Part shown: positions 6,628 through 55,584 of the stretch, piece after piece
Position numbering within the stretch: position 1 is the stretch's first letter
Layout of the letters: the number at the start of each line of letters is the position of its first letter
Notes under the pieces: generated by a model
What the model was told of the DNA's origin: nothing
Database searches by the model: none
Seen by the model: only the letters and a program-made list of their open reading frames with translations
Source of the DNA: Candidatus Undinarchaeales archaeon
Lineage (GTDB): Archaea > SpSt-1190 > JASMDC01
NCBI GenBank assembly: GCA_030753015.1
Contig: JASMDC010000014.1
Location: 1-64,000, forward strand
Length of the DNA stretch: 64,000 bases
Reading direction: 5' to 3'
Position numbers and translations under genes: made by a program

Positions 6628-6650
6628 TATATATATGTTTCGTTTTGGTG
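6628..6650 (-). promoter_or_regulatory. Archaeal BRE/TATA promoter of paralog 2
   Basis: Minus strand reads CACCAAAACGAAACATATATATA; conserved with the paralog 1 promoter. Confidence 0.7.
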
Positions 6651-6722
6651 CTACCGCTGGAAGAAGGAGTGAGGAGAAGGGTTGCGCGGGGACCTAGGTC
6701 CCCGCGCCCTGCCTTTATGGGG

Positions 6723-7298: not shown

Positions 7299-7334
7299 GT
7301 TTTGTCACCAGCAAGTGACGACACCCCCTTGTCG

Positions 7335-7356
7335 TTTATATACTTTTCGTTTGGTG
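7335..7356 (-). promoter_or_regulatory. Archaeal BRE/TATA promoter of paralog 1
   Basis: Minus strand reads CACCAAACGAAAAGTATATAAA. Confidence 0.7.
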
Positions 7357-7403
7357 TGAGACGTGCTGACAGACAGAACGGGACACGGGGCCGCATAAAG
7401 AGG

Positions 7404-9221: not shown

Positions 9222-9317
9222 CCAGTCACCCGATGTCAGAATCAAGCTGCTCACCCGGTTTATAAGGTTTTAGGAACCCGGCCGGGGTGCATTCGACAGC
9301 TGTAGCTATCCATCATG

Positions 9318-9421
9318 CAAAAGGGAAACGGGGGCGGGAACCATAAAGGAATGGCAACCCACGGCAAAGCCAGGATCTTTCTCGCCGCCCCCTGGGGGAC
9401 CCGGGTGGCGTCGTGCCCCCC
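9318..9421 (-). ncRNA. Candidate structured small RNA (unknown family)
   Basis: TATA-like CTTAATTA ~29 nt upstream; GC clamps GGGGG/CCCCC and GGGGGCGG/CCGCCCCC; pyrimidine tail TTTCCCTTTT; no convincing ORF. Confidence 0.35.
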
Positions 9422-9493
9422 TTAGGATTCGAATATACTCCTGATGTAATTAAGCCTCGGGAATTATCGTATATACTGGCAAAGTAGAGGGGC

Positions 9494-11473
9494 TCAGTCC
9501 CTCTTTTTTCCCTTCATCGTCTTCGATGGGTGCTCGCCGAGCAGCTCGAGGGCCGCCTCGGCAGCGGACCTCACGAACGTGTCATCGTCATCCATGAGGG
9601 CGCCAAGCGCCTTCACAGCACCACGCTCGCCGATCCTACCAAGAGCGTCCGCGGCGTGTTTGCGAACATGCGGGTTCGTATCATTAGTGACCTTTACGAG
9701 GGACTTGAGCGAGGCGGGCGAACCTATACGACCGAGAGCCTCGGCAGCAGAAAGCCGCACCCGTCCGTTGATGTCCTTGAGAGTATCATGGAGGGCGTCC
9801 CTTGCGCGAACGTCGCCGATATGTCCGAGCGCTTCTGCCGCGCACCACCGCAGGTCCACGTATTCGTCCTTGAGCAGCCCGATGAGCGGGATCGTACCCC
9901 TCGAATCCCCGATGCGCCCAAGAGCTTCGGCCGCCGCCCATCGCACATCGTCATGAGCGTCGTTAATGAGGTCGAGCAGCGGTTCGACGGCGCGTACGTC
10001 ACCTGTGCGACCCAGGGCTTCCACGACCCTTGTGCGTATCTGTTCGTGATGGTTATCGACCATGCTGATGAGGGGCTCTACAGCTAGAGGATCGCCAAGC
10101 CTCCCGAGGGACTCCACGGCACAGAGCCGCACGTCCTCGTGCCTGTCCCGAAGAGCGGTGATGATCTTGCGAACAGCACGGGCGTCACCGATCCTACCCA
10201 GCGCCTCTACTGCGTAACGCCTTACGTATACGTGCTCGTCGTCGAGGATGGTGAGCAGTCCTTTGACCGAGGAGCGGCTCCCGATGCGACCCAGTGCCTC
10301 TGCAGCGGACCAACGGACGTGGCTGTTGTCGTCCTTCAGTGCCATGAGGAGATAGGGTGTGGCAGCTCGTATCGACAGTTGGCCCAGTGCCTCGGCAGCG
10401 CTCCAGCGCACGTGGCTGGACTCGTCCTTGAGCGCGTCCATGAGCGCGGAACCAGCATCCCTGTCTCCGATGCTACCAAGTGCATCTGCGGCATACCATC
10501 TCACTTCCTCGTACTCGTCCCGAAGGAGCACCAGGAGCGGCATGACCGCGGCTCTGTCACCGATCCGTGCCAAAGCCCCGGCGGCCGCACGCCTCACATA
10601 GATGTGATGGTCCTTGGTGCACTCATTGAGCGCAGTTACTGCATCCTTCGAGCCGATACGCCCAAGCGCTTCAGCGGCCTTGGCACGCACGTCACCGTCC
10701 TCATCGTCGATGACCGATTCCTTGAGGATAGGGACAGAGGAGTAGTCCCCGAACCTGCCAAGTGCCTCTGCGACATACTTGCGCACCTCGACGGACTGAT
10801 GCGTCACGAGTGCCGTTACCGGTTCGATCGCTCTCGCATCGCGTATGCGTATGAGCGACATGATCGCACCGACGATGATACGTTCGTTGGACGATCCCAG
10901 CTCCTTCAAGAGGTGGTCGACTGCGTCCTCGCCTATCTCCCCCAGTGCCATTGCGGCACCGTACCGTGCATAGATATAATCGTCATCGAGCGTTCTTATA
11001 AGCGGTGTGATGGCCCGCTTGTCCTTCAGGCGGCCGAGCGCCTCTGCAGCGTGCTTGCGCACCTCCTCGTCATCGTGAGCGAGCGCTCCGATGAGCGGCT
11101 CCACGGCCTTGTTGTCACCGATCCTTCCGAGGGCCAGTATGGCCGCGTGACGTTTGTCCTCGTCACCGGTCGAAAGGACACTGATTAGCGGATCGACAGC
11201 GTGCTTTCCGATCTTGCCCAGGGCGAGCGCGGCACCGTACCGGGCGTACATGTCCTTGTCGCCGAGCAGGTCGGTGAGCGGTTCGACCGCCTTGATGCTC
11301 CCAAGGTCACCAAGGGCGAGCGCCGCGAACTGTCTGATGGTCTGATCTTCATCACGGAGGGCTTCGATGAGGGGTCCGACCGCGCTCTCACCGATCGTGG
11401 CGAGAGCGTCCTCGCCCCCATCATGGTAGTTGATGAGTATCTCTCTGATACGTCTGTGAAGCTCCCCTTCCAT
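9494..11473 (-). CDS. HEAT repeat (PBS lyase-type) protein, about 20 repeats
   Basis: 31-aa repeat VRxxAAEALGRIGDxRAVEPLIxxLxD throughout. ATG 11473 after GGTGA. Confidence 0.95.
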   Translation of the reverse strand: MEGELHRRIREILINYHDGGEDALATIGESAVGPLIEALRDEDQTIRQFAALALGDLGSIKAVEPLTDLLGDKDMYARYGAALALGKIGKHAVDPLISVLSTGDEDKRHAAILALGRIGDNKAVEPLIGALAHDDEEVRKHAAEALGRLKDKRAITPLIRTLDDDYIYARYGAAMALGEIGEDAVDHLLKELGSSNERIIVGAIMSLIRIRDARAIEPVTALVTHQSVEVRKYVAEALGRFGDYSSVPILKESVIDDEDGDVRAKAAEALGRIGSKDAVTALNECTKDHHIYVRRAAAGALARIGDRAAVMPLLVLLRDEYEEVRWYAADALGSIGDRDAGSALMDALKDESSHVRWSAAEALGQLSIRAATPYLLMALKDDNSHVRWSAAEALGRIGSRSSVKGLLTILDDEHVYVRRYAVEALGRIGDARAVRKIITALRDRHEDVRLCAVESLGRLGDPLAVEPLISMVDNHHEQIRTRVVEALGRTGDVRAVEPLLDLINDAHDDVRWAAAEALGRIGDSRGTIPLIGLLKDEYVDLRWCAAEALGHIGDVRARDALHDTLKDINGRVRLSAAEALGRIGSPASLKSLVKVTNDTNPHVRKHAADALGRIGERGAVKALGALMDDDDTFVRSAAEAALELLGEHPSKTMKGKKRD

Positions 11474-11530
11474 AGAGGTCACCAGTTCCCGGGATTACCC
11501 CTCACGCCCCGTACCACCTAGGGACGCCGC

Positions 11531-12001
11531 CTACTTCTTCTTACCGCTCTTGGCAGCGGACTTCTTCGCCTTCTTCGGAGCTGACTTCTTCTCCGAGATG
11601 CGGGGAGAGTCCTCCCCCAGGAGGATCTTGGGGGATGAGATCGGTGGCGGCAGCTTGAGGTCCCGCGCGAGGTTGATGGAGAGGATGAGCGGGTCCTGCA
11701 ACATGGCCTGGAACACCCGTTCCTTGGCGGGCTTAAGGAGGTCGATGTTTTTGCCTTCTCCTACCAGGATGTTGTCGATACGCTCTCCCGAGATGATCAT
11801 GATGCCCTGTACATTGAGTATCCCGACGGAAGGTGCATAGTCGGTGATGAGCTGGAACCTAACTGCAACGGCATCCCGCCCGGCGAGCTTGATGCGTTCG
11901 ATTGCTGTGATGCCCGGCTTGGTCTGGATGGAGATCTCCTCGGCGGAGACCTCGTGATTACGCTTGCCGGCGACATCGGTGTACACGATCTGGATCGGCA
12001 T
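11531..12001 (-). CDS. Hypothetical archaeal protein with Lys/Ala-rich tail
   Basis: 156 aa; ARDLKLPPPI motif; upstream TTTAAA box. Confidence 0.7.
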   Translation of the reverse strand: MPIQIVYTDVAGKRNHEVSAEEISIQTKPGITAIERIKLAGRDAVAVRFQLITDYAPSVGILNVQGIMIISGERIDNILVGEGKNIDLLKPAKERVFQAMLQDPLILSINLARDLKLPPPISSPKILLGEDSPRISEKKSAPKKAKKSAAKSGKKK

Positions 12002-12058
12002 GGGATTCGCCCCGGTGTCAACATTTAAATAGGTATTCGCGGCCCGTGGCCGGTCCGT

Positions 12059-13885
12059 TCACGCCTCGTCCCTGCCCAGGAAGTCGAGCGGACACGCCTG
12101 AGCAAGGCACTTCCCGCACTTCGTGCATCGCTTATCATCCAGCATGAGCCGACCCAAGAAGGAGAGCGCGTCACAGGGGCATGCAGAGACACATATACCG
12201 CACCCCGTGCACGCACGGTCGCGCACGAGCACCTTGCACACGCTCTCGAGGATCTCGTGTACCCCCTCTCTCGTAAGATCCTCACCAAGGACATTGGCGC
12301 TGCCATCGGGTCCGATCATCAACGTGGCATCACGCATTTCGATGGTGATACCGTCCTCATTATCAACGACGCCCAGCATCGAAAGAAGGTGGCTGTCCTC
12401 CCATCCCTCGATCTTGACGTCGAACATGTTGACGTCCCCACCACCGCTCTCAGAGATGATGGTGGCCATAGGCGCACCGCCTTTAAGGCACTGCTTCTCA
12501 CCGTGGCCGTGGCGTCGCCAGCCACCTTGTGCCCATTCGTCGCCCAGATTGTGGCGTTTTGCATGCTCCTGGACGATGTCGTCCCAACGCTGCGCGAGGT
12601 CTGGGTGCGTCTCTGCCAGTCGCTTGAACCCCCACGCGCTGGACGAAGGGCACATCCAGCATCCGACACGCTCGTGACCTCGGTGGTACATGGGGTTCAC
12701 GGGCACCTTCTCGCGCAGGAGGTAGAGCCACACGTCCAGCCCGGTCCAGTCGAGGATCGGGTAGGCCGAGAGCTGGTTGGGGACCCATGGATTGCGGTCG
12801 ATCGGTGGACGTTTGGCCCGGGAGAACGACTCGTACTTCCGCTCGCCGCCGAAGGTCAGTGTCGATCCCCATCGCTCCCCGATGGTCCGGGAAACGGGAC
12901 CGAGCTTAGCGACCTTGCAGCACCACCGGTAGTCCATGGCGGGTGGTCCGAAGGTCTGCAGGTTGCGCCAGAAACCGTCACCTGCCGAGGCGACAATGAG
13001 CCTTTCCTCTAGGCCGAGCGCCTTGCATGAATCGTGCACGCACTTCACGGTCTCTTCGAACTCCAGCCCGGTATCAACGAAAAGGACGTCGAACTCCTCG
13101 AGCGCCTTCTTCGCGATAACAAGGGTCACCATCGAGTCCTTCCCACCGCTCATGGCCACGAGAGGGTGCCCCTTGTTCCGATGCACGGCCTTCCGCATGA
13201 AGGCCATGGCATGTCGCTCGATGTTGTCAAGACGACGCGAGTTGGCCTCGACAGCGTCATCCCATGTGGACGGTCCCAGGTCGTCACCGTCGGAACGTCC
13301 GAACCTGCGGACCTTCACGGCGACACCACGCTCTCTGGTGCCCATCTCATCGCCGTTCATGCGTGCCGTTCCAGTGGCCACGACACGACCGTTGACATGG
13401 ACATAGACCTCCTGTCCGTTACGGATCTCAGGATCTGCCCCGTCCACTCCCGGCCTGAGCAGGTCGCCATGTTCGAGGAACCTGACGACGTCCTCCTCGA
13501 TGGTCACGCTTCCACGTGCTCCACCATCGGCCAACCGCTGGGCACCGGCGATATAGAGCTTGCAGAACTCCACCCCGGCGTCGTCGGTCCCGATGATACA
13601 GAGCTTCACACCATCGGTCAGGATCTCATAGGCACAGTCGAAACCGGCAGTGCTGCTCATCACGGCCACCCGGTCATCCCGGAGGAGAGGTGCGCCGTAA
13701 CGCTCACTGAAGAACGCGTTGATGTGCTCCACATCCCAGGGGAACGCGGGCTTAGTGTCCGCCGGGGGCGTGAGGCTGATGGACCTCGGTTGCGCCTCAC
13801 ATCGTCCACATTTCCGGCCTATGACCGGTACGTTACACTGCTCGCACCAGCCCAGAGTGGTCTTTCCCAACACGGGCGCCGGCAT
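12059..13885 (-). CDS. PAPS reductase family protein with Zn ribbon, PUA domain and C-terminal 4Fe-4S ferredoxin domain
   Basis: WCEQCNVP...CGRC, PUA-like LLRPGV, SGGKDS, RWCCKVAK, RVGCWMCP, CTGCGICVSACP. Confidence 0.9.
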   Translation of the reverse strand: MPAPVLGKTTLGWCEQCNVPVIGRKCGRCEAQPRSISLTPPADTKPAFPWDVEHINAFFSERYGAPLLRDDRVAVMSSTAGFDCAYEILTDGVKLCIIGTDDAGVEFCKLYIAGAQRLADGGARGSVTIEEDVVRFLEHGDLLRPGVDGADPEIRNGQEVYVHVNGRVVATGTARMNGDEMGTRERGVAVKVRRFGRSDGDDLGPSTWDDAVEANSRRLDNIERHAMAFMRKAVHRNKGHPLVAMSGGKDSMVTLVIAKKALEEFDVLFVDTGLEFEETVKCVHDSCKALGLEERLIVASAGDGFWRNLQTFGPPAMDYRWCCKVAKLGPVSRTIGERWGSTLTFGGERKYESFSRAKRPPIDRNPWVPNQLSAYPILDWTGLDVWLYLLREKVPVNPMYHRGHERVGCWMCPSSSAWGFKRLAETHPDLAQRWDDIVQEHAKRHNLGDEWAQGGWRRHGHGEKQCLKGGAPMATIISESGGGDVNMFDVKIEGWEDSHLLSMLGVVDNEDGITIEMRDATLMIGPDGSANVLGEDLTREGVHEILESVCKVLVRDRACTGCGICVSACPCDALSFLGRLMLDDKRCTKCGKCLAQACPLDFLGRDEA

Positions 13886-13937
13886 GGGTCGGCGTGTAGC
13901 CAATAGACTTATATGCGTTCGGTAGGGCGAAACGCCC

Positions 13938-14615
13938 ATGCGGCCTCCCCTCCCCCATCCCCTGCTCAAGGCATTATGGGTCTTGAACCGGGCTGCTTGG
14001 CGACCGGACGGTGGGGAGCTGTCCCGTGTCCTTGGTATCCCCGAGGCATCGCTCGATGCGCTCGTTGACAACCTCGTGAACAATGGGCTTGCAGAACGTG
14101 ACCCTGAACAACGGGTCCATCTCACAAAGGCTGGCAGGAAGGAGCTCACGATCGTCCTCACGGCCGGTACCTTCGACATCCTTCATGGAGGTCACGTGTT
14201 CACCCTCGAGCGTGCCAAGGACTACGGGGACGTTCTCGCCGTGGTGATCGCACGTGATGCCAACGTTCGAAAGATAAAGGGACGTGATCCTATCCTCGAT
14301 GAGCAGGAACGGGTCACGCTCGTATCGGCCCTGAAGCCCGTGGACCTGGCCGTGCTCGGCGATATCGATGATCCCCTTCACCCGCTGCTAGACATCGAGC
14401 CCGACGTTGTCGTGCTCGGGTTCAACCAGCCCAAGGACGAGGAAGAGCTCCGCCGCGCGCTCAAAGAACACGGTCTGAGCCCGAAGATCGTGCGGTTCTC
14501 GGAGTACCGCGATGATCCGGGATCGTCCTCAGCGATCCTCAGGGAGGTCATCAGACGCTATCTCGAGGGCGAGCTCGCGCCCGTTATTGAGGACGATGGA
14601 CCGGAGAACGCCTGA
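13938..14615 (+). CDS. ribL: FAD synthase (cytidylyltransferase family) with N-terminal winged-HTH
   Basis: AGTFDILHGGH, VVIARD, PDVVVLGFNQ, SSSAI. N-terminal ELSRVLGIPEASLDALVDNLVNNGLA...LTKAG is MarR-like. Confidence 0.75.
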   Translation: MRPPLPHPLLKALWVLNRAAWRPDGGELSRVLGIPEASLDALVDNLVNNGLAERDPEQRVHLTKAGRKELTIVLTAGTFDILHGGHVFTLERAKDYGDVLAVVIARDANVRKIKGRDPILDEQERVTLVSALKPVDLAVLGDIDDPLHPLLDIEPDVVVLGFNQPKDEEELRRALKEHGLSPKIVRFSEYRDDPGSSSAILREVIRRYLEGELAPVIEDDGPENA

Positions 14616-38995: not shown

Positions 38996-39070
38996 TAGCG
39001 GGGGATGGATTTGAACCATCGATCTTCGGGTTATGAGCCCGACGGGCACTCCAGGCTACCCTACCCCGCT
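38996..39070 (-). tRNA. tRNA-Met(CAT), initiator type
   Basis: AGCGGGGTAGGGTAGCCTGG...TCGGGCTCATAACCCGA...GGTTCAAATCC...CCCCGCTA. A1-U72 pair, GGG/CCC anticodon stem, no intron, TATTTAAA upstream. Confidence 0.97.
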
Positions 39071-45596: not shown

Positions 45597-46595
45597 CTAC
45601 AGCTCGGAGTACTCCTCTTGACGACGGCGGATGATGATGTAGCGCATATAGAGCAACACCACGACGCCCGTGATGAGGATTATCGAGATGAGCAGGACCT
45701 GGACGAGGTTCTCGAAGTCAAGCTTCGCGATGTTATACTCCACGTGAGCGTCCCAGTAGATGTATATCATCTCCTGGGCCGAGTCGTGCTGTCCGATGAC
45801 CGAATAGGAGCGACGCGCGCTCTCAAGGGCGCTCTTCCCCTGGGCGTAGCGGATCATCTTGAGATACGACACTGAACCCGCGTAGTCCTGGATAATCTGC
45901 TTCCCTTCAGCGCTCTTCTCCAGGGCATTGGTCGTATGGGCCGTACAATCCTCTACGGCCTCTTTGTGGCGGGTGGCATACTCCTCTGCTCTGGCCGATT
46001 TGCACGTGCGTGCCCATGAAGAGACCCGATCGAGCACTTCGGCCTGACGACACACGTTCGGCTCACCTTCCACGATGGCGTCGAACACGGAGAGCGCGAC
46101 GAAGCAGATGTCCTCGTAGGTATCGTCCACGTTCGTGAGGACCTCGGTGACCTCCTCATGCTCGAAAGAGGCCACGGTGAGGTTCTGCCGGTCCTCGGCG
46201 AGTGCCTCGATATTGTCGGTTATGGTACTGAAGCTCTCGATAGATTGGGCCTGCTCGTATGCCATGGATGATGCTGTGACCGCCCAGTACGTATCTCGTG
46301 TGTGATTGATGAAGTCATAGGTGGACGAGAGGAAGGTGGCCCCGAAGGTACCGTCCTTGCCGGAAGGGAGAGTCTGCGAATCGCAGAGGTAGGAGAGGTC
46401 CCGGGCGAAGTGGCACACCGATGAGGCCGTTGGGATGTCGGTTATGAACGTATCCCGGTGGCCACGCGAGATTATCTCCGAGTAGAGATCGATGAGCTGG
46501 CGACACGGTCGCGGCTCCGCCAATACCGGCATCAGCATAACGAGCAGTACTACTGTCGCAATGACCAGTAAGCGGGTCGTTCCATTCGACCTCAC
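45597..46595 (-). CDS. Secreted helical protein with C-terminal membrane anchor (tubulin operon gene 5)
   Basis: Signal peptide, Cys-containing helical region, TM plus YMRYIIIRRR; GTGA overlap with gene 4. Confidence 0.75.
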   Translation of the reverse strand: MRSNGTTRLLVIATVVLLVMLMPVLAEPRPCRQLIDLYSEIISRGHRDTFITDIPTASSVCHFARDLSYLCDSQTLPSGKDGTFGATFLSSTYDFINHTRDTYWAVTASSMAYEQAQSIESFSTITDNIEALAEDRQNLTVASFEHEEVTEVLTNVDDTYEDICFVALSVFDAIVEGEPNVCRQAEVLDRVSSWARTCKSARAEEYATRHKEAVEDCTAHTTNALEKSAEGKQIIQDYAGSVSYLKMIRYAQGKSALESARRSYSVIGQHDSAQEMIYIYWDAHVEYNIAKLDFENLVQVLLISIILITGVVVLLYMRYIIIRRRQEEYSEL

Positions 46596-49471
46596 AGCTC
46601 AAGCACCTTCTGCGTCTTGATCCGATAACGCACGTACATACCTGTGATGATGACGGTGACCATGAACGCGAATGCCACGACGACATTGACCAGTGTCGAC
46701 CAGAGCATGGCCAGGTCCTCGCGTTCGCTCTCGATGATGATGAGCTCGTTCCGCACACGTTCCGCGTCCTCCGTGAGATTCAGGTACTCACTTCCTAAGT
46801 CCCCTACAATCTCCCTGTACTCTTTGATGACCCTGTCGTACTTCTCCAGCGCGCGAGGGGGGAGGATACGGTCGCCCAATGCCTCCTGTCTGAGACCTTG
46901 GACATTCTCATACTTCGTCGAGACCTCGTCGAGCTTGTCGATGATATTACAGCGCAGGTTCACCCGGCTGAAGAACACGTTGGCCATGGCACCGTTGTGG
47001 CGCAGACGCTCAGAACGTGTCGTGGGTTTCAGGCAGTAGTACCTTCCGACATCCTCGAACGTTTTCAGGAGGGTGGCATTGGCCTTCTCGCAGATCGGCC
47101 GCGCCTCCTCGATATCGATGCACAACACTTCGAGGTTGCGCTCGGTCGAACGCAAGATGGAGAGAGCGCGGACCGACGTGAGATTATGGCTCCGCTTCAT
47201 TTCGTTGAGGGTTAGGACGTTCGTCGAGAACACCGAGAAGGAAGATACGAGGGAGGCGGCTTTCGCCGACATGACCGGATCTTTCTTCGACCAGTCATCG
47301 CAGTGGACCAGGAAATCGCGCAGAGCCTTCTTCTCCTCTGGGAACCGTTTATCGATGAGCTTGATGTCGTCCCGGGCCTTCCGACAGCTCGGTGGGATGA
47401 TCTCGAACTCCATGGGTCTCTCATCGGCGGCCCGGTCATCGTTCAGGGCATCGATGACAAGGCCGATCGTGTAGTCCCCTCTCGGATCGGAGAAGTCGAA
47501 CCCAAGGCCTATTGGCAGCGTAAGGCGGCCCCCCTTGTCGATCTCGAACACGGGCGAGGGTACCTCTACTGCTTTGGCATGACGCACACACGCCTCCCCG
47601 GCCCCAACGGGGCAGGACCGGGCAACGACACTGAACGTTATGTTCCGGAGAGGGGTGAACCCGCCAACCTCTGCCAGGGTGAGGCTCGTGTTACCAGTGA
47701 TCGACGGCGGGCGTTCCTTGTAGAGCGTGAGCTTGTCCGGCATCTCGATCATGAGCTGTGGGTGGGGGATCGTGAAGGAGAATGGGACCGTCCGGTCACC
47801 ACGGTCAGGTATGGTAATGCGCAGCCCGCAGGTGTACTTATCTGGCGGGAGGTAATGGGGTACGTTCACCTCGAGGTCGAAGTCACCGGTCTCTTTTGCC
47901 GATACACCGATAGTCCCCTTAGCGACAGTGATGAATGTATTATTGAAATCACAGTCCACGATCTCGCCAGTAATCCCCTCAGCACAACCTCCATCGACCT
48001 CGATGATGGTTATGTTCTGTGACCGGAAATCCCCGCAAGGGAGCTCACGCATGTCCACATTCTCTGCCTTGAGGAGATAGTCAAAGCGTGGTACTTTGAG
48101 GAACAGGACTGTCTCTTTCTTTGCTTGTTCGGTCTTCGTGCGTGGATATGTCGCTGCTAGCCGGCCCGTGTACTCCCCCGCATTGATGTACTTGGGGACC
48201 ATGATATTCAGGGTACCGCTTATCCGGTCACCAGGGGAGAGGTTGTCGGTCTTTTCAGCTTCGAACTCGAATGTGAAGTCCTTGATATTGCCCGTTATGT
48301 CCAACTTGAGGTCACGAACGCAGCCGGAGGTGGATGGTACGTACAGCTCGATGGGCTGCTTGAGCTCCCCCTTGCAGGGTGCGTCGAGCCCGATCGACCG
48401 GGGGCTCAGACGGAGCTCTGGAGGTCGGACTGACACAGCTGCGGGGACCTGTAGCATTTCATCCCCGAAGCGGAGGTTGATCTTGTAATCATCCTGCTTC
48501 TCATCCTCGTCCTCCAGGAGCGTGAGGTTGCCCAGAGTGAAGTCGACAGTTACCTTACCGCACTTGGGGAGCGTGTAGCTCTTCGAAGTGAAGATGAACG
48601 GATGGTCGTCCATGTTCACGTCAACTTCGAGCGGCAGATCGAACACGCAGCAGCGGTCCTCGATGGTTATGGTCCGTTCCTCGTTACCACAAGCGTTCTC
48701 GAATGAGAATGTATCAGGGCTTACTCGTACGTCCAGCGCTGGCACGAACCGAATGTTCAGGTCCACGACGATCTCAAGGGCGTTCGAACCCTCGATCCGA
48801 AGGGGTGTCGAATAGGTCGTCCATGGTGTGAGCACCTGTACTGTCTTCATGTTGAGCGTGATGTATTGGACCTGTCCCGATCTGACCTCACTGAAGCTCA
48901 ACTGGTTCCCGAAGCGATCACCAAGGCTGATCTCCAGAGGACAATCCCCGTCCTCGTTACACATGTATGATGAGTCCAATTGTGCCACAACGTTGTACGC
49001 GTCGAGCTTACCCTGATTGGTCAGGGAAAGACTGTCCGTAACCTTGACGGCCCCGGAAGAGCGACATGGGATCTCGATGTCCTTTGCGTACTCTATCGGA
49101 ACGGTGCGGAGGTTGGCACGCGCTTTCGCTACGTTGAAGGAGACGTATGTGGACTTCGGGCTACCGGTCAGGTTGTAAGCCTCGATCTTTAGCTTGTAGC
49201 TGCCTGTGCTCAGCTTCCCGATCATTATCTCGTGGCTTGTGGACCAGGAAGCATCGGTCCCGAGGACACGACCCCGGTCGTCCTTGACCTGTGCCTGGGA
49301 GTTCTGATTGGTCGAGATCGTGATCGTGAGAAGGTCTGCATCGGTCGCATAATCATAGGGTTCCTTCGATGCGATGACCTGAGCGGAACTCGTGAACCTG
49401 AAGTCATCCGCCACGGCGGACAAGCAGAGGAGGATCGACAGAGCGAGTAGTATGCGCTGGTAGCGAGCCAT
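46592..49471 (-). CDS. Large surface protein: Ig-like beta-rich repeats, helical stalk, C-terminal TM (tubulin operon gene 4)
   Basis: Signal peptide, repeated PC...VP.Y...G.Y...L modules, helical C-terminal region, TM plus YVRYRIK; abuts the gene 3 stop. Confidence 0.8.
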   Translation of the reverse strand: MARYQRILLALSILLCLSAVADDFRFTSSAQVIASKEPYDYATDADLLTITISTNQNSQAQVKDDRGRVLGTDASWSTSHEIMIGKLSTGSYKLKIEAYNLTGSPKSTYVSFNVAKARANLRTVPIEYAKDIEIPCRSSGAVKVTDSLSLTNQGKLDAYNVVAQLDSSYMCNEDGDCPLEISLGDRFGNQLSFSEVRSGQVQYITLNMKTVQVLTPWTTYSTPLRIEGSNALEIVVDLNIRFVPALDVRVSPDTFSFENACGNEERTITIEDRCCVFDLPLEVDVNMDDHPFIFTSKSYTLPKCGKVTVDFTLGNLTLLEDEDEKQDDYKINLRFGDEMLQVPAAVSVRPPELRLSPRSIGLDAPCKGELKQPIELYVPSTSGCVRDLKLDITGNIKDFTFEFEAEKTDNLSPGDRISGTLNIMVPKYINAGEYTGRLAATYPRTKTEQAKKETVLFLKVPRFDYLLKAENVDMRELPCGDFRSQNITIIEVDGGCAEGITGEIVDCDFNNTFITVAKGTIGVSAKETGDFDLEVNVPHYLPPDKYTCGLRITIPDRGDRTVPFSFTIPHPQLMIEMPDKLTLYKERPPSITGNTSLTLAEVGGFTPLRNITFSVVARSCPVGAGEACVRHAKAVEVPSPVFEIDKGGRLTLPIGLGFDFSDPRGDYTIGLVIDALNDDRAADERPMEFEIIPPSCRKARDDIKLIDKRFPEEKKALRDFLVHCDDWSKKDPVMSAKAASLVSSFSVFSTNVLTLNEMKRSHNLTSVRALSILRSTERNLEVLCIDIEEARPICEKANATLLKTFEDVGRYYCLKPTTRSERLRHNGAMANVFFSRVNLRCNIIDKLDEVSTKYENVQGLRQEALGDRILPPRALEKYDRVIKEYREIVGDLGSEYLNLTEDAERVRNELIIIESEREDLAMLWSTLVNVVVAFAFMVTVIITGMYVRYRIKTQKVLEL

Positions 49472-50398
49472 TCAACCACGCCCCAGGAGCAGGAGCACCG
49501 CACCAGCGATGGCCAGTATCACCGACACCCCCAAGGCACCTAGGGCCACCGACCGGGGCTGGACGATGTTAGTGGAGCTTGTGAACGTTTTCCAGAACTC
49601 CACTTGTGCACGATACTTCCGATCGTAGGCGATTATGATAACGATCACCAGGAAGCATCCAACGAGCGCTGCCGGGGCTATCCGCGTCGTTACGAGCCCG
49701 GGAATGCGTGTGCTCTCATCCTCCAACAACATCTTAGACTTCTTGAGTTCCTCCTTGAAGCTCTCAAGAGGGGCCTCGGGCCCGAGCCCGGTAACTCCCA
49801 TTTCCTTGATGTTCTTCTGTGATGCTTCTCCGGCCTCGACGACACGCGACTCGTACAATGAGGGGTAGTCAAGAAGGAACTTGCGCTCGGGTTCAGTCAA
49901 GGCTGCGAGCTCTTCCGACGTCGGGACCGTGCCAATGCGCAGGTCCGCTGTATACCGGGAGAGCCTTAGGGCACGACTGGCGGTCATTACCGATTCATGT
50001 ACGCATGAGGGCCGGTCACATATCGTTGCCCAGGATATCTCCATCCAATCGGTGATTAGCGTGTCGACACGGGCTCCTGACTCGGACACCGCACGCGTCA
50101 CCTCTGAAATGAAGCCCGACATGACATGCTTGAAGGATTCCGGTGTGCAACCAGTAACTCCGCTGAGCGCCTGTTCTCCAGTCTCGCATATGGAGAGGTT
50201 AGCAAGGACCGGATCATCAACATATCCTTCGATGAACTTCGCGTCCATTTTTCCACGGACAGGTCTGATGAGATCGATACAATCCTTGGGAGCACCTTTA
50301 TCCGGTTCGCAAGCAGGTGGTTCGCCCTCGAACACGAACTGTGTACATCCACTGATGAGTACGAATGAGAGCAGGAGAACTGCGTACTTACTCTTCAT
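49472..50398 (-). CDS. Lipoprotein with two C-terminal TM helices (tubulin operon gene 3)
   Basis: MKSKYAVLLLSFVLISG/C lipobox; two C-terminal hydrophobic segments; 11-nt overlap with gene 2. Confidence 0.75.
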   Translation of the reverse strand: MKSKYAVLLLSFVLISGCTQFVFEGEPPACEPDKGAPKDCIDLIRPVRGKMDAKFIEGYVDDPVLANLSICETGEQALSGVTGCTPESFKHVMSGFISEVTRAVSESGARVDTLITDWMEISWATICDRPSCVHESVMTASRALRLSRYTADLRIGTVPTSEELAALTEPERKFLLDYPSLYESRVVEAGEASQKNIKEMGVTGLGPEAPLESFKEELKKSKMLLEDESTRIPGLVTTRIAPAALVGCFLVIVIIIAYDRKYRAQVEFWKTFTSSTNIVQPRSVALGALGVSVILAIAGAVLLLLGRG

Positions 50399-52325
50399 CG
50401 TCCTCACCCTCCCAATAGTCATCATCGTCGGCCTCAGTATCATCAACCTCGGCCTTCGCCTGTACGGCCTCGCTCGCCCCCTTGTTCGGCTCCTTGCTTC
50501 TCTTTGGGACGGGAGCTCCCCTTACAATGGCGAGTCCAAGAAGAGCGCCAAGCAGACCACCGAGCCCGAAACCGAAGAGGATACCGGGAACGCCACCGAC
50601 CGCGGCGTTCGTCTTGGCGTTCTTCGCCCGCTCGATCTCGACGACGGCACGCTGTCCAAGGAGGTCCTCTCGTTCATGGAGCGACTCCACGGAAACCGCG
50701 GCCATAGCAAGACTATCGAGCGCTACCGTCTCGATGCTCAATGAAGAGGAACTGCTCCCGCACCGGCCATCAGTGCAAGTGACGTTGATGTAAACTACAC
50801 AGGCGCCTCCGGTGGAGGAGTAAACTACGGTCCCGTTGACGTCCGCGCGGGCGGGTACGGTCCATCCCTCGTTGGCCGCTGTAAGGCCTTCTATCTTAAG
50901 GCCCGTAGCACAGCCTGCATTATCCGTGACCTTGAGGAGGCGTTCAAGGTCGGCCGGCACCGTCCCAGAGAGCTTGATCGAGAAGGGGTACCGTGATGCC
51001 ATCCCGGTGAAGGTGCGCTGTGACGTGGTACCAATATCCAGGCTCTGGACAAGTGGAGCTCGAACGAGGAACTCGGCGCATCCCTCGCCGGAGAGCCCCT
51101 TGATAACGGCACAAATAGCATGGAGACCTGCAGCGTCCGGGACGAGACCGAGGTCTTTGAGTGCATATGGTTTCCCAGATACGACCTGGAACACCTTGGA
51201 GGATGAGGCAAGGGTCTCACTGCTGGTAACGGTGATATTCAGAGGGAGGACGATGTCAGGAACGCCGGTGACCGTGACGGACGTCTCGACCGTGTCCCCG
51301 GGGAACACCTCGAGGCGATCGTGTGAGAAATATATGTGGAATGCTCCCGAGCCCAGCTGTGTGATGGGAGCACGGACCAGTGTCTCCACGGTCTCGTTGC
51401 GCTCGAACGAGTAGGTGACGTGTAGCATATCGGTGCCATTGAACAGCGGGCGGAGCGTGAGAGCGACGGTCGTTCCCGCGACAGGCTTCATCACAAGGAG
51501 CTCGGTCCGCTCCCCGTCCTTCCAGCTTCCGAGCACCTCGAAGGCCTCTGTGTTCACGGAGACGGTGAGGATGCGATCGGTGCGCTGTTCATTAGTGAAG
51601 ACCACTGTGGCGTTGAAGGTCTCGTTCCCCTGGAGGACCGTTGCAGTGGTCGTGAGTTCGGCCGTCGGCAGCACGGCGGGCACATCGACCTCAGGGCCTG
51701 TGACTTTCCCCTTGACCATGGCTTCGATCACGCACGTATCCAAGGTCACATCGCCCTCTCCAGTGGCCGTGAGCGTGATGGTGGTGGACCCTCCGCCAAT
51801 GGCGCGGAAGGAAGCGAGCTTCACGATGCCCTGAATCATGCTGGTGACGTTCTGAGCGTACTCGAGAGTAAGCACCGAGTCATCGAAATCCGCGGATACG
51901 TTCGCATCGGTAGCAAAGGCCCATGCGCTCACATCAAGGTTATCGCCGAGGTCCAGTGTGACAGATGCATCGGGACAGAGCAGACCCACAGGTTCTCGAG
52001 GCTTGATCTCGACCGTGGCCCACGTCCGAACGGTACCGGATGTGCGGTTGACGAGGGTGAGGTTGAGCTGTGGATTCTCTACAACAAGGCCATATGGCGG
52101 TGCCGTCACATTGACGATCACCTCGAAATTGGACCCTGCAGGTGGGAATGACACGGTCGCGTAGGATGCGGCGGACGCGGGATCCACATCTACGACAATA
52201 CCTTCGGTCGCTGTGACAGGCGGAAATGTACAGCTCTCGGACGAGCCCTCCCGAAGTGGGCCTAGCGAATCGCACGTCTTGAGTGCGAACGCTGGCGATA
52301 TCATTAGTGTAAAGAGGAGCACCAA
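50388..52325 (-). CDS. Thr/Val-rich Ig-like surface protein with C-terminal TM and acidic tail (tubulin operon gene 2)
   Basis: Signal peptide ending AFA, beta-rich ectodomain with many N-x-S/T sites, Gly-rich TM, tail DDTEADDDDYWEGEDDEE. True start may be ATA 52358. Confidence 0.8.
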   Translation of the reverse strand: MVLLFTLMISPAFALKTCDSLGPLREGSSESCTFPPVTATEGIVVDVDPASAASYATVSFPPAGSNFEVIVNVTAPPYGLVVENPQLNLTLVNRTSGTVRTWATVEIKPREPVGLLCPDASVTLDLGDNLDVSAWAFATDANVSADFDDSVLTLEYAQNVTSMIQGIVKLASFRAIGGGSTTITLTATGEGDVTLDTCVIEAMVKGKVTGPEVDVPAVLPTAELTTTATVLQGNETFNATVVFTNEQRTDRILTVSVNTEAFEVLGSWKDGERTELLVMKPVAGTTVALTLRPLFNGTDMLHVTYSFERNETVETLVRAPITQLGSGAFHIYFSHDRLEVFPGDTVETSVTVTGVPDIVLPLNITVTSSETLASSSKVFQVVSGKPYALKDLGLVPDAAGLHAICAVIKGLSGEGCAEFLVRAPLVQSLDIGTTSQRTFTGMASRYPFSIKLSGTVPADLERLLKVTDNAGCATGLKIEGLTAANEGWTVPARADVNGTVVYSSTGGACVVYINVTCTDGRCGSSSSSLSIETVALDSLAMAAVSVESLHEREDLLGQRAVVEIERAKNAKTNAAVGGVPGILFGFGLGGLLGALLGLAIVRGAPVPKRSKEPNKGASEAVQAKAEVDDTEADDDDYWEGEDDEE

Positions 52326-52361
52326 TCCAATTAGACGTATGGATCTAGGAGAAGCTATCGC

Positions 52362-53645
52362 CTACCCCCCTGAGAAGAACTCCATCTCAGTAACGTTATC
52401 AAAGAGCGCCTGTGCTTCATCCGGTGAAGTCTTGCTCGCTTCACGGAGGGTCTTGCGGGCCCAAGCGTTCCCCTTGACCTCGAGCTCCTTCAATCGCCCC
52501 ACGTCCTGCGGTCTGTAGGTGAAGGACGTTGTGACGGAGATCTCGGGATTGTCGGTCGGGACCACACCATGATGGAGCTCCTTACGAGTGAGGCGGCCCT
52601 CTTGGTCCTTGGTGATGGTCTCGAAGTATATCTTGTTCAGGTACTTCTTGTTCACCTTGAACACCATGGCGGCAGAGACAGGGAGCGTCTCTTCCAGCCC
52701 GGTCATGAGCTGTTTCGACCAGCACTTCATGGCCTCATCCGCGACCTGCTGAGTCTTGTCCTTTGATAAGAAGGGGAGCATCGTCTCCGAGAAGCTCAGG
52801 AACATCTGGCTACGTCCGATCGAGGCGATACCGGGCTTGCCCGGCATATAGGCAAGAGCTCGGATGTAGTCCGCAATGTCGAATGCGGGCAGGTTGAGCT
52901 TGCCCGTTGAGTCCTGGATGGACACGATGAGGTCGAGCACGAGGTTCTTAAGGGAGTCGACCACCATCTCGTTGAACACAGGTATCTTCTCGATGAAGGC
53001 GCCATGACCACGCTCGAGAACGACCTGGTTATCGACGACGATGAGCCCGTCGACGAGGTCGAGCATCTTGGTAATGTTCCACACGGCGTTCCAGGCACGC
53101 ATGTAGCCTTCGCTCTCCTCGGCAGGGAGCACTGCGACAGCGATGATGGGCGTGTTCGGGTAGATAAGCTTGAGGAACTCTGCGATCTTGGGTGCAGTAC
53201 CGGAACCCGTACCACCGCCAGCACCGAACGCCATGAGGATGACCGGAGGCCCGTTCTCACCCATCTTGAGGTGTAGGAAACGGCGGAACTCGGGCAGGAA
53301 CTCGTTCTGGTGTTCCTCGAGAAGGATGTGGCCCTTCCAAGGTGTAGCGCCCATCCCGCCCTTCACGCGACCTTCGAAGTCGGTCTGGTCGGTCTTTCCT
53401 AGGGCAGGAGCCACGCACGATCCGTCGATCCCGATACCCACGACGGGATCGAGCTTGAAGGCCTTGCGCAGGTTAGGGCAAGCGCGGTAGTAATCGGTGA
53501 ACCCTGATGTGATGCACACAGGAGTGATGAACACCGACGGGTCCTGTTTGAAGAAGTCAAGGAATGTCTTCTCACCCTTCAGGTTCATATACAGCTGGTC
53601 GAGTATCTTCATCCCGCACTGACCAAGTCCCACTGCACCGTACAT
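52362..53645 (-). CDS. Tubulin/FtsZ superfamily GTPase, divergent (CetZ/TubZ-like)
   Basis: VGLGQCG (T1), GGMGATPWKG (T3), GAGGGTGSG (T4), AVLP, IVVDN, FN, FDIADY (T7). Confidence 0.9.
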   Translation of the reverse strand: MYGAVGLGQCGMKILDQLYMNLKGEKTFLDFFKQDPSVFITPVCITSGFTDYYRACPNLRKAFKLDPVVGIGIDGSCVAPALGKTDQTDFEGRVKGGMGATPWKGHILLEEHQNEFLPEFRRFLHLKMGENGPPVILMAFGAGGGTGSGTAPKIAEFLKLIYPNTPIIAVAVLPAEESEGYMRAWNAVWNITKMLDLVDGLIVVDNQVVLERGHGAFIEKIPVFNEMVVDSLKNLVLDLIVSIQDSTGKLNLPAFDIADYIRALAYMPGKPGIASIGRSQMFLSFSETMLPFLSKDKTQQVADEAMKCWSKQLMTGLEETLPVSAAMVFKVNKKYLNKIYFETITKDQEGRLTRKELHHGVVPTDNPEISVTTSFTYRPQDVGRLKELEVKGNAWARKTLREASKTSPDEAQALFDNVTEMEFFSGG

Positions 53646-53666
53646 ATCTGATATATCGGGAGGGGA

Positions 53667-53676
53667 TTAATATTAA
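53667..53676. promoter_or_regulatory. Palindromic AT-rich box, probable shared promoter of the divergent tubulin and Ubl genes
   Basis: TTAATATTAA is a perfect palindrome in the 76-bp intergenic gap. Confidence 0.5.
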
Positions 53677-53721
53677 ATAGGTATTCGTGCCATTCCGTGA
53701 CGGATCCGGGGGCCGTGACCT

Positions 53722-55584
53722 ATGACAGGAATGTACTATATCCGTCTTGCTACCATTGATGAGGTCTTTCAGGTCCACCCCTTCGATCCCAACGATCCGG
53801 GACAACCCCTGCTCGAGAACTTCACACGCATCGTCGGTAGCGTCTACCACCTCTCGCGTATCTACAGGCTCAAGTCCATCGGTCTATACGTCCATTATGT
53901 ATTGGAGCGGGCCAAGACCTGGGTCACCGAGGAGGAGGGCGACTACGTGCTCAACGTCGAGGTGCCCACTACCTGGACCTATCCCAGTACCGTGGAGCTG
54001 CTCTCCGAGATGGCTGCGAGCAAGTATCGCGATAACAGGATGAAGCTCACAAAGCGGGCAGAGATGGGTATCAATCCCTTCCTCAACCAGGCCGTTTCCA
54101 GCATACAACGTATGCAGGTCTCCGAGCTACAAGGGCTCGTTGATATCCCGGATAACGTAGCACGGGCCTATATCGCCAAGCTTCGGGGTGAGCAGCAGAC
54201 CCTCCTTCGTAATCTTGTTATCGGCAAGCTCCTCGCGGCGGGGAAGCTCTACGCTACAACCCAGCAGGCAGATGCCCAGCACACCGTCTGCGTCCGATGT
54301 GGGAACGTCCTTGACCTGCAGCGAAACCGCTGCCCGAAGTGTTTCTCCGCCCACCAGGGCGTGAAGTTCCAGGTCTATGTGACCGCATGGCAGGATGGCG
54401 AACCGGGAAAAGATTTCCTTGTGTTCCCGATCGAACCTCTGAAATCGATCCTCCCCAATCCCACATCCCCTCTTTTCGAGCAGACAATGCTCAAGGAGCT
54501 CGTGCTCCAGCATTTCAAGATTAGCGGGGACAGCGAGGGCTTCGTGCTCATGGACCTGGACCGCTCGCAGGAAGGGACATGGGAGCGCACTAATCTCCTA
54601 CTTCACGGTCGGAGGCTAGCGCTTGTGCCCTCTGATCGCGCCCCGGACATCGACGATTCCGAGATCTACGCCCAGCTCCGTTTCTCTGATGTGTGCGCCG
54701 ACTTCATCCAGCTACGGGTGACTCTCCCCGGGAACAGAGGGACCGTGGCCCACTCGGTAAGCCCGGAGACGCGCCTCGGGGACGTCGCCGATGCGGTGGT
54801 CAATAAAGCGGGGCTCAAGCTGGCGGACACCATCCTTGTTCGTGGGGGGCATCCCCTTGACCGGGAGGGGACCGTGGGCCAGGTAGGGCTCGTCAGCGGG
54901 GAAGAGGTCACCGTACAGGCCGTAGCACAGATGGCCGTGTTCATCCCAGAGATCGGGGGTACGAAACGATTCGGTGTCCCCGGGCGGATCACTGCTGCCC
55001 AGGCCATCGACCTCCTCAAGACACGATGCAATCTGACAGGTGATTACGTGCTCTCACAGGGTTCGGTATTCCTTAATCCAGATCACATTATCGATCCTGC
55101 TGCGCTCAGCAAGGGTGCGGGATTGCGTCTCAACCAACTCATCACCGTTGGTATCCAGCTCGCGGGGAACGTTCATACCATCAGTGTCTCGGCCGAGTCG
55201 ACGGTCGGCGACCTGCTCAGCAATCTCAAGGTGCGCGTCGGTGTGAACGGAGTGCTCGTTGCCCAGCTCAAGGGTGCGGTCGTCCCTAGCACCACACTAA
55301 TTGGTGAGCTCGATCTCAAGAAGGGACAGAACCTCGCGGCCGTGGAACGTCAGGTCAAGATGATCAACCTAACCATCTCACCGATCGAGGGAGGGAAGGA
55401 CACCAAGGTATCCATAGCTGAGGACCAGACAGTCTCCTCGCTCAAAGTCCAGCTCCGTACGATGCTCGGTCTCCCCGATAGCTCACGCATGGACCTCGTT
55501 TTCGGGGAGAAGGTGCTCAAGGACGATGCATCCCTGATGGAGTCCGGTGTCGGGGAAGGCGCGAACCTCTTCCTCATGGGATAA
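53722..55584 (+). CDS. Zn-ribbon protein with four tandem C-terminal ubiquitin-like domains
   Basis: CVRC-x10-CPKC at aa ~190. Four ~73-aa beta-grasp-like units at aa ~329-620; the last reads TVSSLKVQLRTMLGLP..RMDLVFGEKVLKDDASLMESGVGEGANLFL. Confidence 0.75.
   Translation: MTGMYYIRLATIDEVFQVHPFDPNDPGQPLLENFTRIVGSVYHLSRIYRLKSIGLYVHYVLERAKTWVTEEEGDYVLNVEVPTTWTYPSTVELLSEMAASKYRDNRMKLTKRAEMGINPFLNQAVSSIQRMQVSELQGLVDIPDNVARAYIAKLRGEQQTLLRNLVIGKLLAAGKLYATTQQADAQHTVCVRCGNVLDLQRNRCPKCFSAHQGVKFQVYVTAWQDGEPGKDFLVFPIEPLKSILPNPTSPLFEQTMLKELVLQHFKISGDSEGFVLMDLDRSQEGTWERTNLLLHGRRLALVPSDRAPDIDDSEIYAQLRFSDVCADFIQLRVTLPGNRGTVAHSVSPETRLGDVADAVVNKAGLKLADTILVRGGHPLDREGTVGQVGLVSGEEVTVQAVAQMAVFIPEIGGTKRFGVPGRITAAQAIDLLKTRCNLTGDYVLSQGSVFLNPDHIIDPAALSKGAGLRLNQLITVGIQLAGNVHTISVSAESTVGDLLSNLKVRVGVNGVLVAQLKGAVVPSTTLIGELDLKKGQNLAAVERQVKMINLTISPIEGGKDTKVSIAEDQTVSSLKVQLRTMLGLPDSSRMDLVFGEKVLKDDASLMESGVGEGANLFLMG

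Follow-up and report, generated by a model that had tools for sequence, protein, structure and literature searches.

A CetZ-like GTPase gene beside surface-protein genes in an Undinarchaeales archaeon belongs to a reduced copy of a conserved archaeal module

Introduction

Whether an archaeal tubulin-family GTPase can be dedicated to proteins of the cell envelope is the question raised by a 10-kb locus of a Candidatus Undinarchaeales archaeon. The roles of archaeal tubulin-family proteins other than FtsZ are largely open and no membrane partners of CetZ are known; a gene set of this kind gives testable candidates for a link between filament and envelope. The stretch of DNA that was analysed, referred to below as the window, comprises positions 1 to 64,000 of contig JASMDC010000014.1 (assembly GCA_030753015.1). 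In it, a gene for a GTPase of 427 amino acids (aa) leads four genes for surface proteins on the minus strand, and a gene for a 620-aa protein with ubiquitin-like (Ubl) repeats diverges from it on the plus strand. An earlier reading of the letters (hereafter the sequence-only reading) had taken these six genes as one candidate new system. We report that the GTPase and the 959-aa surface protein belong to two families that co-occur throughout the genomes sampled and are paired in several distant archaeal phyla, and that the locus is best explained as a reduced, fast-evolving and divergent copy of a conserved archaeal module, of which the Ubl protein, as judged from homologue searches, is not a conserved component.

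Results

Co-occurrence of the GTPase and B families

A profile of the GTPase family was used to search 401 archaeal genomes around the lineage of the window (threshold E ≤ 1e-50), and 15 of them carried a family member. The 959-aa surface protein belongs to a family termed B, which had a match (E ≤ 2.4e-14) in 15 of the 15 GTPase-carrying genomes and in none of the 386 others. Partial matches to the N-terminal immunoglobulin (Ig)-like region of the B model were present in seven of these 386 genomes, in proteins of 435–2053 aa, and the best of them (2.5e-11) was confined to that Ig region. Thirteen of the 15 positive genomes scored 1e-130 or better for B, but the lineages of 12 of these had contributed to the query alignment. 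Independent cases are provided by the window genome, its sister and Altiarchaeota G447 (9.6e-132). Since the positive genomes stand for about four independent lineages, we regard the co-occurrence as a strong pattern and not as a statistic.

Neighbourhoods of up to 20 kb around family GTPases were then collected from the genomes and from 25 metagenome contigs, and their open reading frames (ORFs) were clustered and turned into hidden Markov models (HMMs). Eight of the 58 loci, which included the window, had no called family GTPase (at least 180 bits) and were excluded (L101-L103, L120, L129, L130, L138 and L143); short loci duplicating a place already represented were not taken in at all. The GTPase and B families were neighbours in 30 of the 50 remaining loci. 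The link between GTPase and envelope genes, for which the sequence-only reading had proposed a co-occurrence search, does recur, and the GTPase-B partnership is conserved and exclusive within the genomes sampled. We consider it very probable that the two proteins act in one system.

The assignment of the 959-aa protein to B was reached in three ways. BLASTP aligned it over 230 residues (4e-9) with a B-cluster member from genome G040, hhalign matched residues 373-617 to the B family (97.3%, E 1.8e-11), and an HMM of B built without the window protein retrieved it as the sole match among 22,376 six-frame ORFs (E 1.3e-13). By these comparisons it is the only B-family member of the window genome.

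The GTPase is CetZ-like

The sequence-only reading had called the GTPase tubulin/FtsZ-like, and its place in the tubulin superfamily was borne out by the Pfam family Tubulin (PF00091; 74.8 bits, E 1.4e-20, gathering cut-off 33). The protein has a GQCG motif at residue 8, GGGTGSG at 143-149 (T4) and a T7-like xDxxD at D256/D259, and both GGGTGSG and the T7 Asp pair were invariant in 26 of 26 aligned family sequences. What had been missed was the CetZ-like character. When the family profile was compared with the PDB, the best entries were those of CetZ, namely 4b46 (8e-33, residues 1-393), 3zid (4e-31) and 4b45 (6e-29), whereas FtsZ (≤1e-19), the tubulins (~1e-15), TubZ and RepX followed, the last two far below CetZ. 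With the single GTPase sequence the margin was narrow, CetZ reaching 4e-10 and BtubB 2e-9.

An AlphaFold2 (AF2) model built with the family alignment (predicted local distance difference test, pLDDT, 87.9; predicted template modelling score, pTM, 0.89) displayed the complete two-domain fold. A Foldseek comparison had been proposed for all the proteins of the locus and was run for this model, placing CetZ1, two chains of CetZ, and CetZ2 at ranks 1-4; tubulins and FtsZ trailed by two to three orders of magnitude, with a probability of 1.00 for CetZ, FtsZ and tubulin chains alike. Identity to the CetZ structures is ~20%. Judged by family profile and predicted fold, the window GTPase is CetZ-like, a term that here means nearest by PDB profile and fold, as the tree described below held no named CetZ references; we do not call it a canonical CetZ. 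It should polymerise and hydrolyse GTP like its relatives, because its tubulin/FtsZ fold is complete and the motifs for nucleotide binding and T7 catalysis are in place.

Two other classes were considered and rejected. The score against the FtsZ equivalog TIGR00065 (41.4 bits) fell below the cut-off of 295.2, which speaks against FtsZ itself. An assignment to FtsZl1 or FtsZl2 fails on the length of 427 aa, the presence of T7, the full C-terminal domain and the lack of vWA, OmpA or GTPase neighbours among the genes scanned, and the locus likewise differs from the described FtsZl1 and FtsZl2 modules.

The C-terminus of the GTPase (52362-52400) consists of an acidic/aromatic peptide followed by Ser-Gly-Gly, and several relatives have a Leu-Phe-Asp/Lys-type motif or Gly-Gly near this end. 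The peptide may be a partner-binding element like that of FtsZ.

Rarity, distribution and tree of the GTPase family

The GTPase is rare. A word-seeded search of 5.8 billion clustered proteins yielded four matches, and an exhaustive search yielded 24 representatives of the family at E ≤ 1e-10; about 25 members align full length at ~30% identity. At the profile threshold of E ≤ 1e-50, the family was present in 23 of 38 genomes from the phylum of G017 (matches of 7e-85 or better), in 5 of 61 from the phylum of an Altiarchaeales genome, and in the single genome of the phylum of G040. Within the window's phylum it was found in the same-genus pair only (2/17 genomes). One member sits on an Altiarchaeales contig.

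The phylogeny that the sequence-only reading had proposed for the GTPase was calculated from 54 rows and rooted on the window genome's own FtsZ genes. The family forms a clade of its own with a Shimodaira-Hasegawa-like approximate likelihood ratio test (SH-aLRT) value of 100. The window GTPase, its sister and a 73%-identical metagenome protein share a long branch, which adjoins the G040 protein as the nearest outside group (SH-aLRT 88).

Several peculiarities were seen among the relatives. On a contig titled Methanoperedens (L021, 2519-3752), the family GTPase is divided between two neighbouring frames, one matching profile positions 2-195 and the other 192-388, which reflects either a frameshift or an assembly error. 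Two family-profile matches (G063:C41 and G062:C143) each contain one in-frame TAG. Some members appear from the alignment to be strongly acidic and haloarchaeal-looking. In one of the excluded loci (L101, G034:C17, ~8556-14105), one strand carries a tandem row of five tubulin-like genes (324-342 aa), recalling the 'quasi-tandem' Halo.Tub arrangement (PMC9871819).

The module in other lineages

Elsewhere, the GTPase-B pair belongs to a conserved module of 6-8 genes. Among the 50 loci, B was present in 30, the A family in 29, C462 in 28, a second tubulin-like gene in 32, E in 24 and L in 11. The layout is near-invariant in the phylum of G017, where E, B and A lie on one strand and the GTPase, C462 and the second, weakly tubulin-like protein lie on the opposite one. 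In that phylum, the surface protein E combines a signal peptide and a transmembrane (TM) segment with a beta-propeller (Pfam PQQ_2), and B, at ~673 aa, has an NPCBM_assoc Ig-like domain and a stalk in addition to its signal peptide and C-terminal TM segment. A is a type-I protein of ~321 aa that likewise bears a signal peptide and one TM segment at its C-terminus, and C462 joins two N-terminal TM segments to a cytoplasmic domain. Many metagenome loci are single co-linear operons, with the order GTPase, small 2-TM protein, L, C462-like protein, second tubulin, E-like protein, A and B; L has a signal peptide and a C-terminal TM hairpin. In every lineage, the A and B genes abut or overlap.

The loci in which partners were missing are mostly short contigs or have the GTPase near a contig end. 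The G040 locus is also reduced; besides the GTPase it has B, an A-like and a 212-aa protein, and its contig stops within B. Two Altiarchaeota genomes (G084/G083, L113/L115) possess two family GTPase paralogues each. One stands beside A-family, second-tubulin and FG-GAP/CBS membrane proteins and the other beside soluble proteins of 870-1590 aa; B is found 13.5 kb away on that contig, with a further occurrence on a different one.

The window genome's best match to the second tubulin lies on contig C75 and groups outside the second-tubulin clade, and its beta-propeller matches lie only away from the locus. The sequence-only reading had before it a reduced version of a larger module, which includes a second tubulin-like protein, and the larger set had escaped it.

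Layout of the window locus

All six ORFs named by the sequence-only reading are present. The features of the locus are as follows.

52362-53645, minus strand: CetZ-like tubulin-superfamily GTPase, 427 aa, the first gene of the operon (Pfam Tubulin, profile, AF2/Foldseek)
50388-52325, minus strand: 645-aa type-I membrane protein with a signal peptide, a probable Ig-like array, a TM segment at ~574-600 and a 45-aa acidic tail
49472-50446, minus strand: 324-aa lipobox protein with a C-terminal TM hairpin, the probable counterpart of the module's L protein
46592-49471, minus strand: 959-aa B-family protein with a signal peptide, Ig-like domains, a low-Pro/Gly stalk, a TM segment at ~919-941 and an 18-aa tail
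45597-46595, minus strand: 332-aa type-I protein with a signal peptide, a TM segment at ~292-315 and a short basic/acidic tail, a counterpart of A by position and topology only
53646-53721, no strand assigned: divergent intergenic region of 76 bp, holding TTAATATTAA (53667-53676), a likely shared TATA-like element
53722-55584, plus strand: 620-aa cytoplasmic protein with a helical N-terminal region, CxxC...CxxC and four tandem Ubl-like repeats, its membership of the system being unproven

The junctions between the minus-strand genes, counted downstream from the GTPase gene, are +36, -59, 0 and -4 bp; the second, between the 645-aa and 324-aa genes, becomes -11 bp if the lipoprotein starts at an internal ATG before its signal peptide. 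Such tight packing of the five genes argues for a single transcription unit. GC content is level across the locus, and the flanking genes are ordinary chromosomal ones encoding a beta-CASP RNase, GCS2, DUF1611, a GT2 glycosyltransferase, a radical-SAM/SPASM protein and an FGGY kinase. The sole Rfam match in the window is one tRNA gene (38996-39070, minus strand).

Surface proteins of the window

Signal peptides and TM segments were called with our own Kyte-Doolittle scan in place of a dedicated predictor. Each of the four surface proteins begins with a hydrophobic signal and carries at least one C-terminal TM segment, and the cytoplasmic tails are very short, at 17-45 aa. Cys residues and N-glycosylation sequons abound in the ectodomains; the 645-aa protein has 12 such sequons. 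For the 645- and 959-aa proteins, the Ig-like call draws on sub-threshold Pfam matches and on ESM-Atlas leads to CARDB/NEW3/FixG_C arrays, whose scores of 0.83-0.85 fall under the level at which such matches are trusted; for the 959-aa protein it draws also on homology to a family with a member passing Pfam NPCBM_assoc. No Pfam match was obtained for the 645-aa protein, the tail of which has a conserved acidic/aromatic end peptide behind a variable linker. The TM segments and the lipoprotein named by the sequence-only reading were recovered; its Ig-like domains stand at the sub-threshold and lead level just described, and 'helical', as applied to the 332-aa protein and the 959-aa stalk, describes composition only.

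The 324-aa protein has the lipobox ISGC at 31-34 and TM segments at 250 and 298. In hhalign it matched the L family (83.7%, E 8e-6) over 91 columns in the C-terminal helix-TM-loop-TM part. It shares the topology of L and lies on the same side of the GTPase as L does in the metagenome loci; a direct search with the L HMM at 1e-4 missed it. It is the probable counterpart of L. The 332-aa protein resembles A in size, topology and position, its gene following directly after the B gene with an overlap. The 332-, 645- and 620-aa proteins were aligned by hhalign with the A, B, C462, E844 and second-tubulin families, and the results are given below where each protein is weighed.

The tails of A and B resemble each other within each lineage, the window included, with similar juxtamembrane aromatic/basic residues followed by acidic end motifs. 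In the window, the 332- and 959-aa tails both have an aromatic-Arg-Tyr juxtamembrane stretch and a Glu-Leu end. The A-like and B tails of G040 have the ending EEIFE in common, and in the phylum of G017 the two tails share a Trp/Arg-x-x-Asp stretch and then a Gly-(Asn/Asp)-Glu/Val-Leu-Val end. Tail motifs that are alike within lineages and unlike between them are expected if both tails bind a single cytoplasmic partner that co-evolves with them.

The Ubl protein and the divergent spacer

The sequence-only reading had given the 620-aa protein a Zn ribbon and four Ubl domains. Two CxxC pairs are indeed present at 190-207 (Pfam DZR weak, E=0.053), followed by four repeats of ~75 aa. The last repeat (556-619) passed the cut-offs of PF00240 (34 bits vs 25.4) and PF11976 (Rad60-SLD; 35.1 vs 23.8); taken singly, two of the other three gave weak Ubl matches and one gave none. 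A profile of all four repeats matched Ubl chains of the PDB almost exclusively (best 8e-8), the strong last repeat contributing to this result. The CxxC pairs and the last Ubl domain stood, while the ribbon family and the other repeats were weak or undetected. A single-sequence AF2 model of the protein had a pLDDT of 31.9, and the Ubl repeats rest on the HMMs instead.

The protein ends in a single Gly and has no C-terminal di-glycine, and no E1, E2 or JAMM genes occurred among the flanking genes scanned. On these grounds, a conjugatable modifier of the ubiquitin/SAMP type was rejected; by its sequence features, the protein looks like a non-conjugated Ubl scaffold.

A homologue search with the 620-aa protein gave only a near-identical orthologue of the same genus. 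The profile of the Ubl repeats found nothing in the 49 other loci (48 of them outside the genus) or in the rest of the genome, and hhalign against the module families reached at most 0.3%. On these sequence searches, the Ubl protein is confined to the genus and is not a conserved module component.

The intergenic region was said to contain a palindromic box, and TTAATATTAA is present there as the sole copy in the window. With 0.15 copies expected and at least one copy in 12 of 100 shuffles, its occurrence is not significant alone. It is likely to be a TATA-like element, since it lies 21 bp before the ATG of the GTPase gene, where an archaeal TATA is expected. TTAATATTAA is identical in the same-genus genome, in which the spacer overall is 95% identical.

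Host genome, occurrence and transcripts

The window is contig C23 of a 3.85-Mb assembly of 117 contigs (98.9% complete, 5% contamination). The same locus is carried, with 97% protein identity, by a same-genus genome recorded as 'Candidatus Undinarchaeota archaeon'. These two genomes (G000/G001) measure 3.6-3.85 Mb, and the 15 other genomes of the phylum measure 0.6-1.2 Mb and are without the GTPase family. The large genomes may come from a probably free-living relative of a DPANN group; otherwise their classification or binning would be at fault, contamination being 5%.

Five further tubulin-family genes are present in the window genome, namely three true FtsZ genes (405-447 bits, cut-off 295) and two divergent ones. 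The three FtsZ genes lie elsewhere in the genome, so that cell division is covered by other genes. On contig C75 of G000 (~2943-9826, L005/L050), a divergent tubulin-family gene of 422 aa lies a few kb from genes for type-I proteins of 659 and 521 aa; its product groups with its own paralogue on C117, outside the family studied. The C75 locus may be another pairing of tubulin and envelope proteins in the same genome.

Marine/seawater metagenome runs of 11 studies contained the 10-kb locus in near-identical form; the archaeon carrying this reduced version of the module is marine and occurs widely. In one metatranscriptome library, eight short 100%-identical contigs fell in the 959-aa, 645-aa, GTPase and Ubl genes and in two flanking genes.

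Discussion

A proposed filament that would place a surface complex

How might a CetZ-like GTPase and these surface proteins work together? In the reading that we favour, the GTPase would polymerise into filaments on the inner face of the membrane. B, the lipoprotein, the 645-aa protein and the A-like 332-aa protein would form a hetero-oligomeric complex at the surface, which the filaments would position, cluster or anchor by binding its short cytoplasmic tails, either directly or via an adaptor. A cytoplasmic GTP-driven polymer would in this manner set where an extracellular Ig-like/stalk assembly sits. Its role would be adhesion, cell-cell or cell-surface contact, or envelope patterning; the Ig-like/stalk ectodomains, with beta-propellers in other lineages, suggest adhesion or contact. 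As a whole, with the locus as a reduced module copy and a filament that controls the placement of the surface complex, this reading has in our judgement somewhat better than an even chance. Direct coupling between filament and tails is put slightly short of even. For the GTPase with the 645-aa tail (residues 598-645), a predicted complex scored 0.01, which gives no verdict and counts neither way. The Ubl protein may be a lineage-specific adaptor that replaces C462 and the second tubulin-like protein; of the steps proposed, this one is the weakest, and we consider it improbable.

A number of observations weigh against the reading. The window locus is without the second tubulin-like protein, C462, the small 2-TM protein and the beta-propeller protein, and no HMM match to C462 or the A family occurred anywhere in the six-frame ORFs of the window genome. 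The 332-aa protein shows no sequence similarity to the A family (hhalign 0.3-12%), and its homologue search gave near-identical same-genus orthologs only. For the 645-aa protein, no relatives outside the genus were found in the other loci, and hhalign against the module families gave at most 6%. The match between the 324-aa protein and L is moderate and falls partly within TM segments. In three loci of Altiarchaeota 'type 2' (L114, L116 and L117), which are real exceptions, the family GTPase has large soluble proteins as neighbours and neither A nor B close by. Kinship among the 15 positive genomes, in about four independent lineages, inflates the co-occurrence counts. Binding of the tails to the GTPase is purely inferred, and the metatranscriptome contigs are a weak hint of expression for which DNA carry-over is possible; stretches of the locus without such a contig carry no message about expression.

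Alternatives

The GTPase and the surface proteins could be co-regulated without physical coupling. The GTPase would then shape the cell or act in motility like CetZ1 of Haloferax, and the surface proteins would merely be made at the same time, for example in a morphological switch. CetZ genes are reported beside cell-surface and type IV pilus genes with no known direct binding (Brown and Duggin 2023, PMC9856176), the surface proteins resemble common archaeal CARDB/NEW3 arrays, and tails of 17-45 aa are short. The all-or-none match of GTPase and B (15/15 vs 0/386), however, exceeds what co-regulation usually gives, as do the gene order kept across phyla and the lineage-matched motifs of the A and B tails. 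We regard co-regulation as unlikely, with perhaps a minor chance of being the whole explanation.

The filament might instead drive membrane remodelling or biogenesis, such as budding, vesicles, protrusions or local insertion and export, with the surface proteins as cargo or coat. FtsZl1, with vWA, OmpA-family and GTPase partners, was proposed to remodel membranes (Makarova and Koonin 2010, PMC2875224), and haloarchaeal vesicles are enriched in CetZ proteins; vesicle production was, however, unchanged in CetZ knock-outs (PMC10927574 for both). The Pfam scan of the operon products and of the flanking genes scanned likewise detected no ESCRT, vWA, OmpA or secretion ATPase. Such a machine seems quite unlikely to us, and the present data do not separate it from a filament-anchored surface complex.

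The sequence-only reading, in full, joined all six genes in one system in which the four-Ubl protein served as the adaptor from filament to tail. In its favour are the divergent genes with a 76-bp shared control region that is kept in the sister genome, the capacity of Ubl repeats in a cytoplasmic protein to bind other proteins, and the missing cytoplasmic partners of the window, C462 and the second tubulin, which an adaptor could replace. The distribution of the Ubl protein counts against it: its orthologs come from the same genus only, neither the 49 other loci nor the rest of the genome yielded a Ubl-like domain, and the YukD match (E 0.055) is sub-threshold. Adjacency in two genomes that are 97% identical at the locus is not independent evidence, and the adaptor role rested on adjacency in one genus. 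With the 645- and 332-aa proteins also without relatives outside the genus, the six-gene system did not hold up in other lineages, and we give the full model a poor chance.

A mobile, viral or defence island with a segregation protein of the TubZ/PhuZ type would fit the tubulin-family proteins known on plasmids and phages and the patchy distribution of the GTPase family, but it is dismissed as extremely improbable, and the defence-system and phage readings with it, given PADLOC matches for 0 of 6 proteins, one marginal PHROGs match (E 0.005), the absence of integrase and replication genes from the flanks scanned, the level GC content, and TubZ and RepX far below CetZ.

Meaning and novelty

We found no description in the literature of a CetZ-like GTPase with conserved type-I membrane partners, although supplements may list family members. 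As a dedicated gene set, the GTPase-envelope module appears undescribed, in keeping with the sequence-only reading, which had not recognised the arrangement as a described system. A 'non-canonical' tubulin-superfamily (TSF) protein occurs in Natronomonas pharaonis (Brown and Duggin 2023, PMC9856176). If the module were present in a genetically tractable haloarchaeon, a direct test would be permitted.

Comparison with known systems

Several known systems share features with the locus. The FtsZ system is likewise a tubulin-fold polymer that is tied to the membrane via partners (SepF and other anchors), and the GTPase, too, has a short conserved C-terminal peptide. The partners in the window differ, being extracellular Ig/stalk proteins and not a divisome, and the TIGR00065 score falls short of its cut-off (41 vs 295 bits).

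The arrangement is reminiscent of integrins and the cytoskeleton, in that type-I proteins with Ig-like domains and short tails are encoded with a cytoskeletal polymer, and FG-GAP/PQQ beta-propellers occur in other lineages. This likeness is architectural. The polymer of the module is tubulin-like, not actin, there are no talin- or kindlin-like adaptors, and no homology is claimed. By analogy, the module could be an archaeal transmembrane linkage machine, in which hetero-oligomers of type-I receptors, their Ig-like or, in other lineages, beta-propeller ectodomains carried by a helical stalk, would be joined via short co-evolving tails to a dedicated tubulin-family polymer of one or two subunits. 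Filament dynamics powered by GTP would then govern, from inside, adhesion or contact with other cells or hosts, and a large-genome marine relative of the host-dependent Undinarchaeota would possess a possible apparatus for cell-cell contact. We offer this as a speculative view with a low probability.

For the Ubl protein, the nearest comparison is YukD/EsaB of type VII secretion, which likewise has no C-terminal di-glycine; the 620-aa protein ends in its single Gly. It differs in that its match to the YukD Pfam family lies below the cut-off (E=0.055) and that no EssC-type ATPase or WXG protein was found among the operon products and scanned flanks.

FtsZl1 and FtsZl2 resemble the window protein in being divergent GTPases of the tubulin family for which gene context predicts a function together with membrane proteins. 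FtsZl1 is ~1000 aa long, with a coiled coil, an alpha-helical C-terminal domain, no T6-H7 and a vWA/OmpA-family/GTPase context, and FtsZl2 is proteobacterial with an alpha/beta C-terminal region of ~300 aa (PMC2875224). The window protein, in contrast, has 427 aa and the full two-domain fold, and no such neighbours were found in the genes scanned.

Similar groups appear in surveys, which note CetZ-like proteins with tubulin-like N-terminal blocks in Altiarchaeota and Halobacterota (Santana-Molina et al. 2023, PMC9871819) and mention 'non-canonical TSF' proteins (Brown and Duggin 2023, PMC9856176). The contexts of the CetZ-like groups are described in the former as 'unknown and unrelated', with coiled-coil proteins. 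Its main text does not contain the A/B/C/E/second-tubulin module or the words 'transmembrane' and 'membrane protein'; its supplements may differ.

CetZ itself (4b46, 3zid and 4b45) is the nearest of all. It is like the GTPase in profile and fold over the full length, including the C-terminal domain, and in the GQCG-type T1 loop, T4 and T7. The window family differs from it by its identity of ~20%, its own well-supported clade and its dedicated, conserved set of membrane proteins, which is absent from those parts of the published CetZ accounts that were consulted. An envelope-associated function, as suggested here for the module, has been proposed for CetZ too (PMC9856176).

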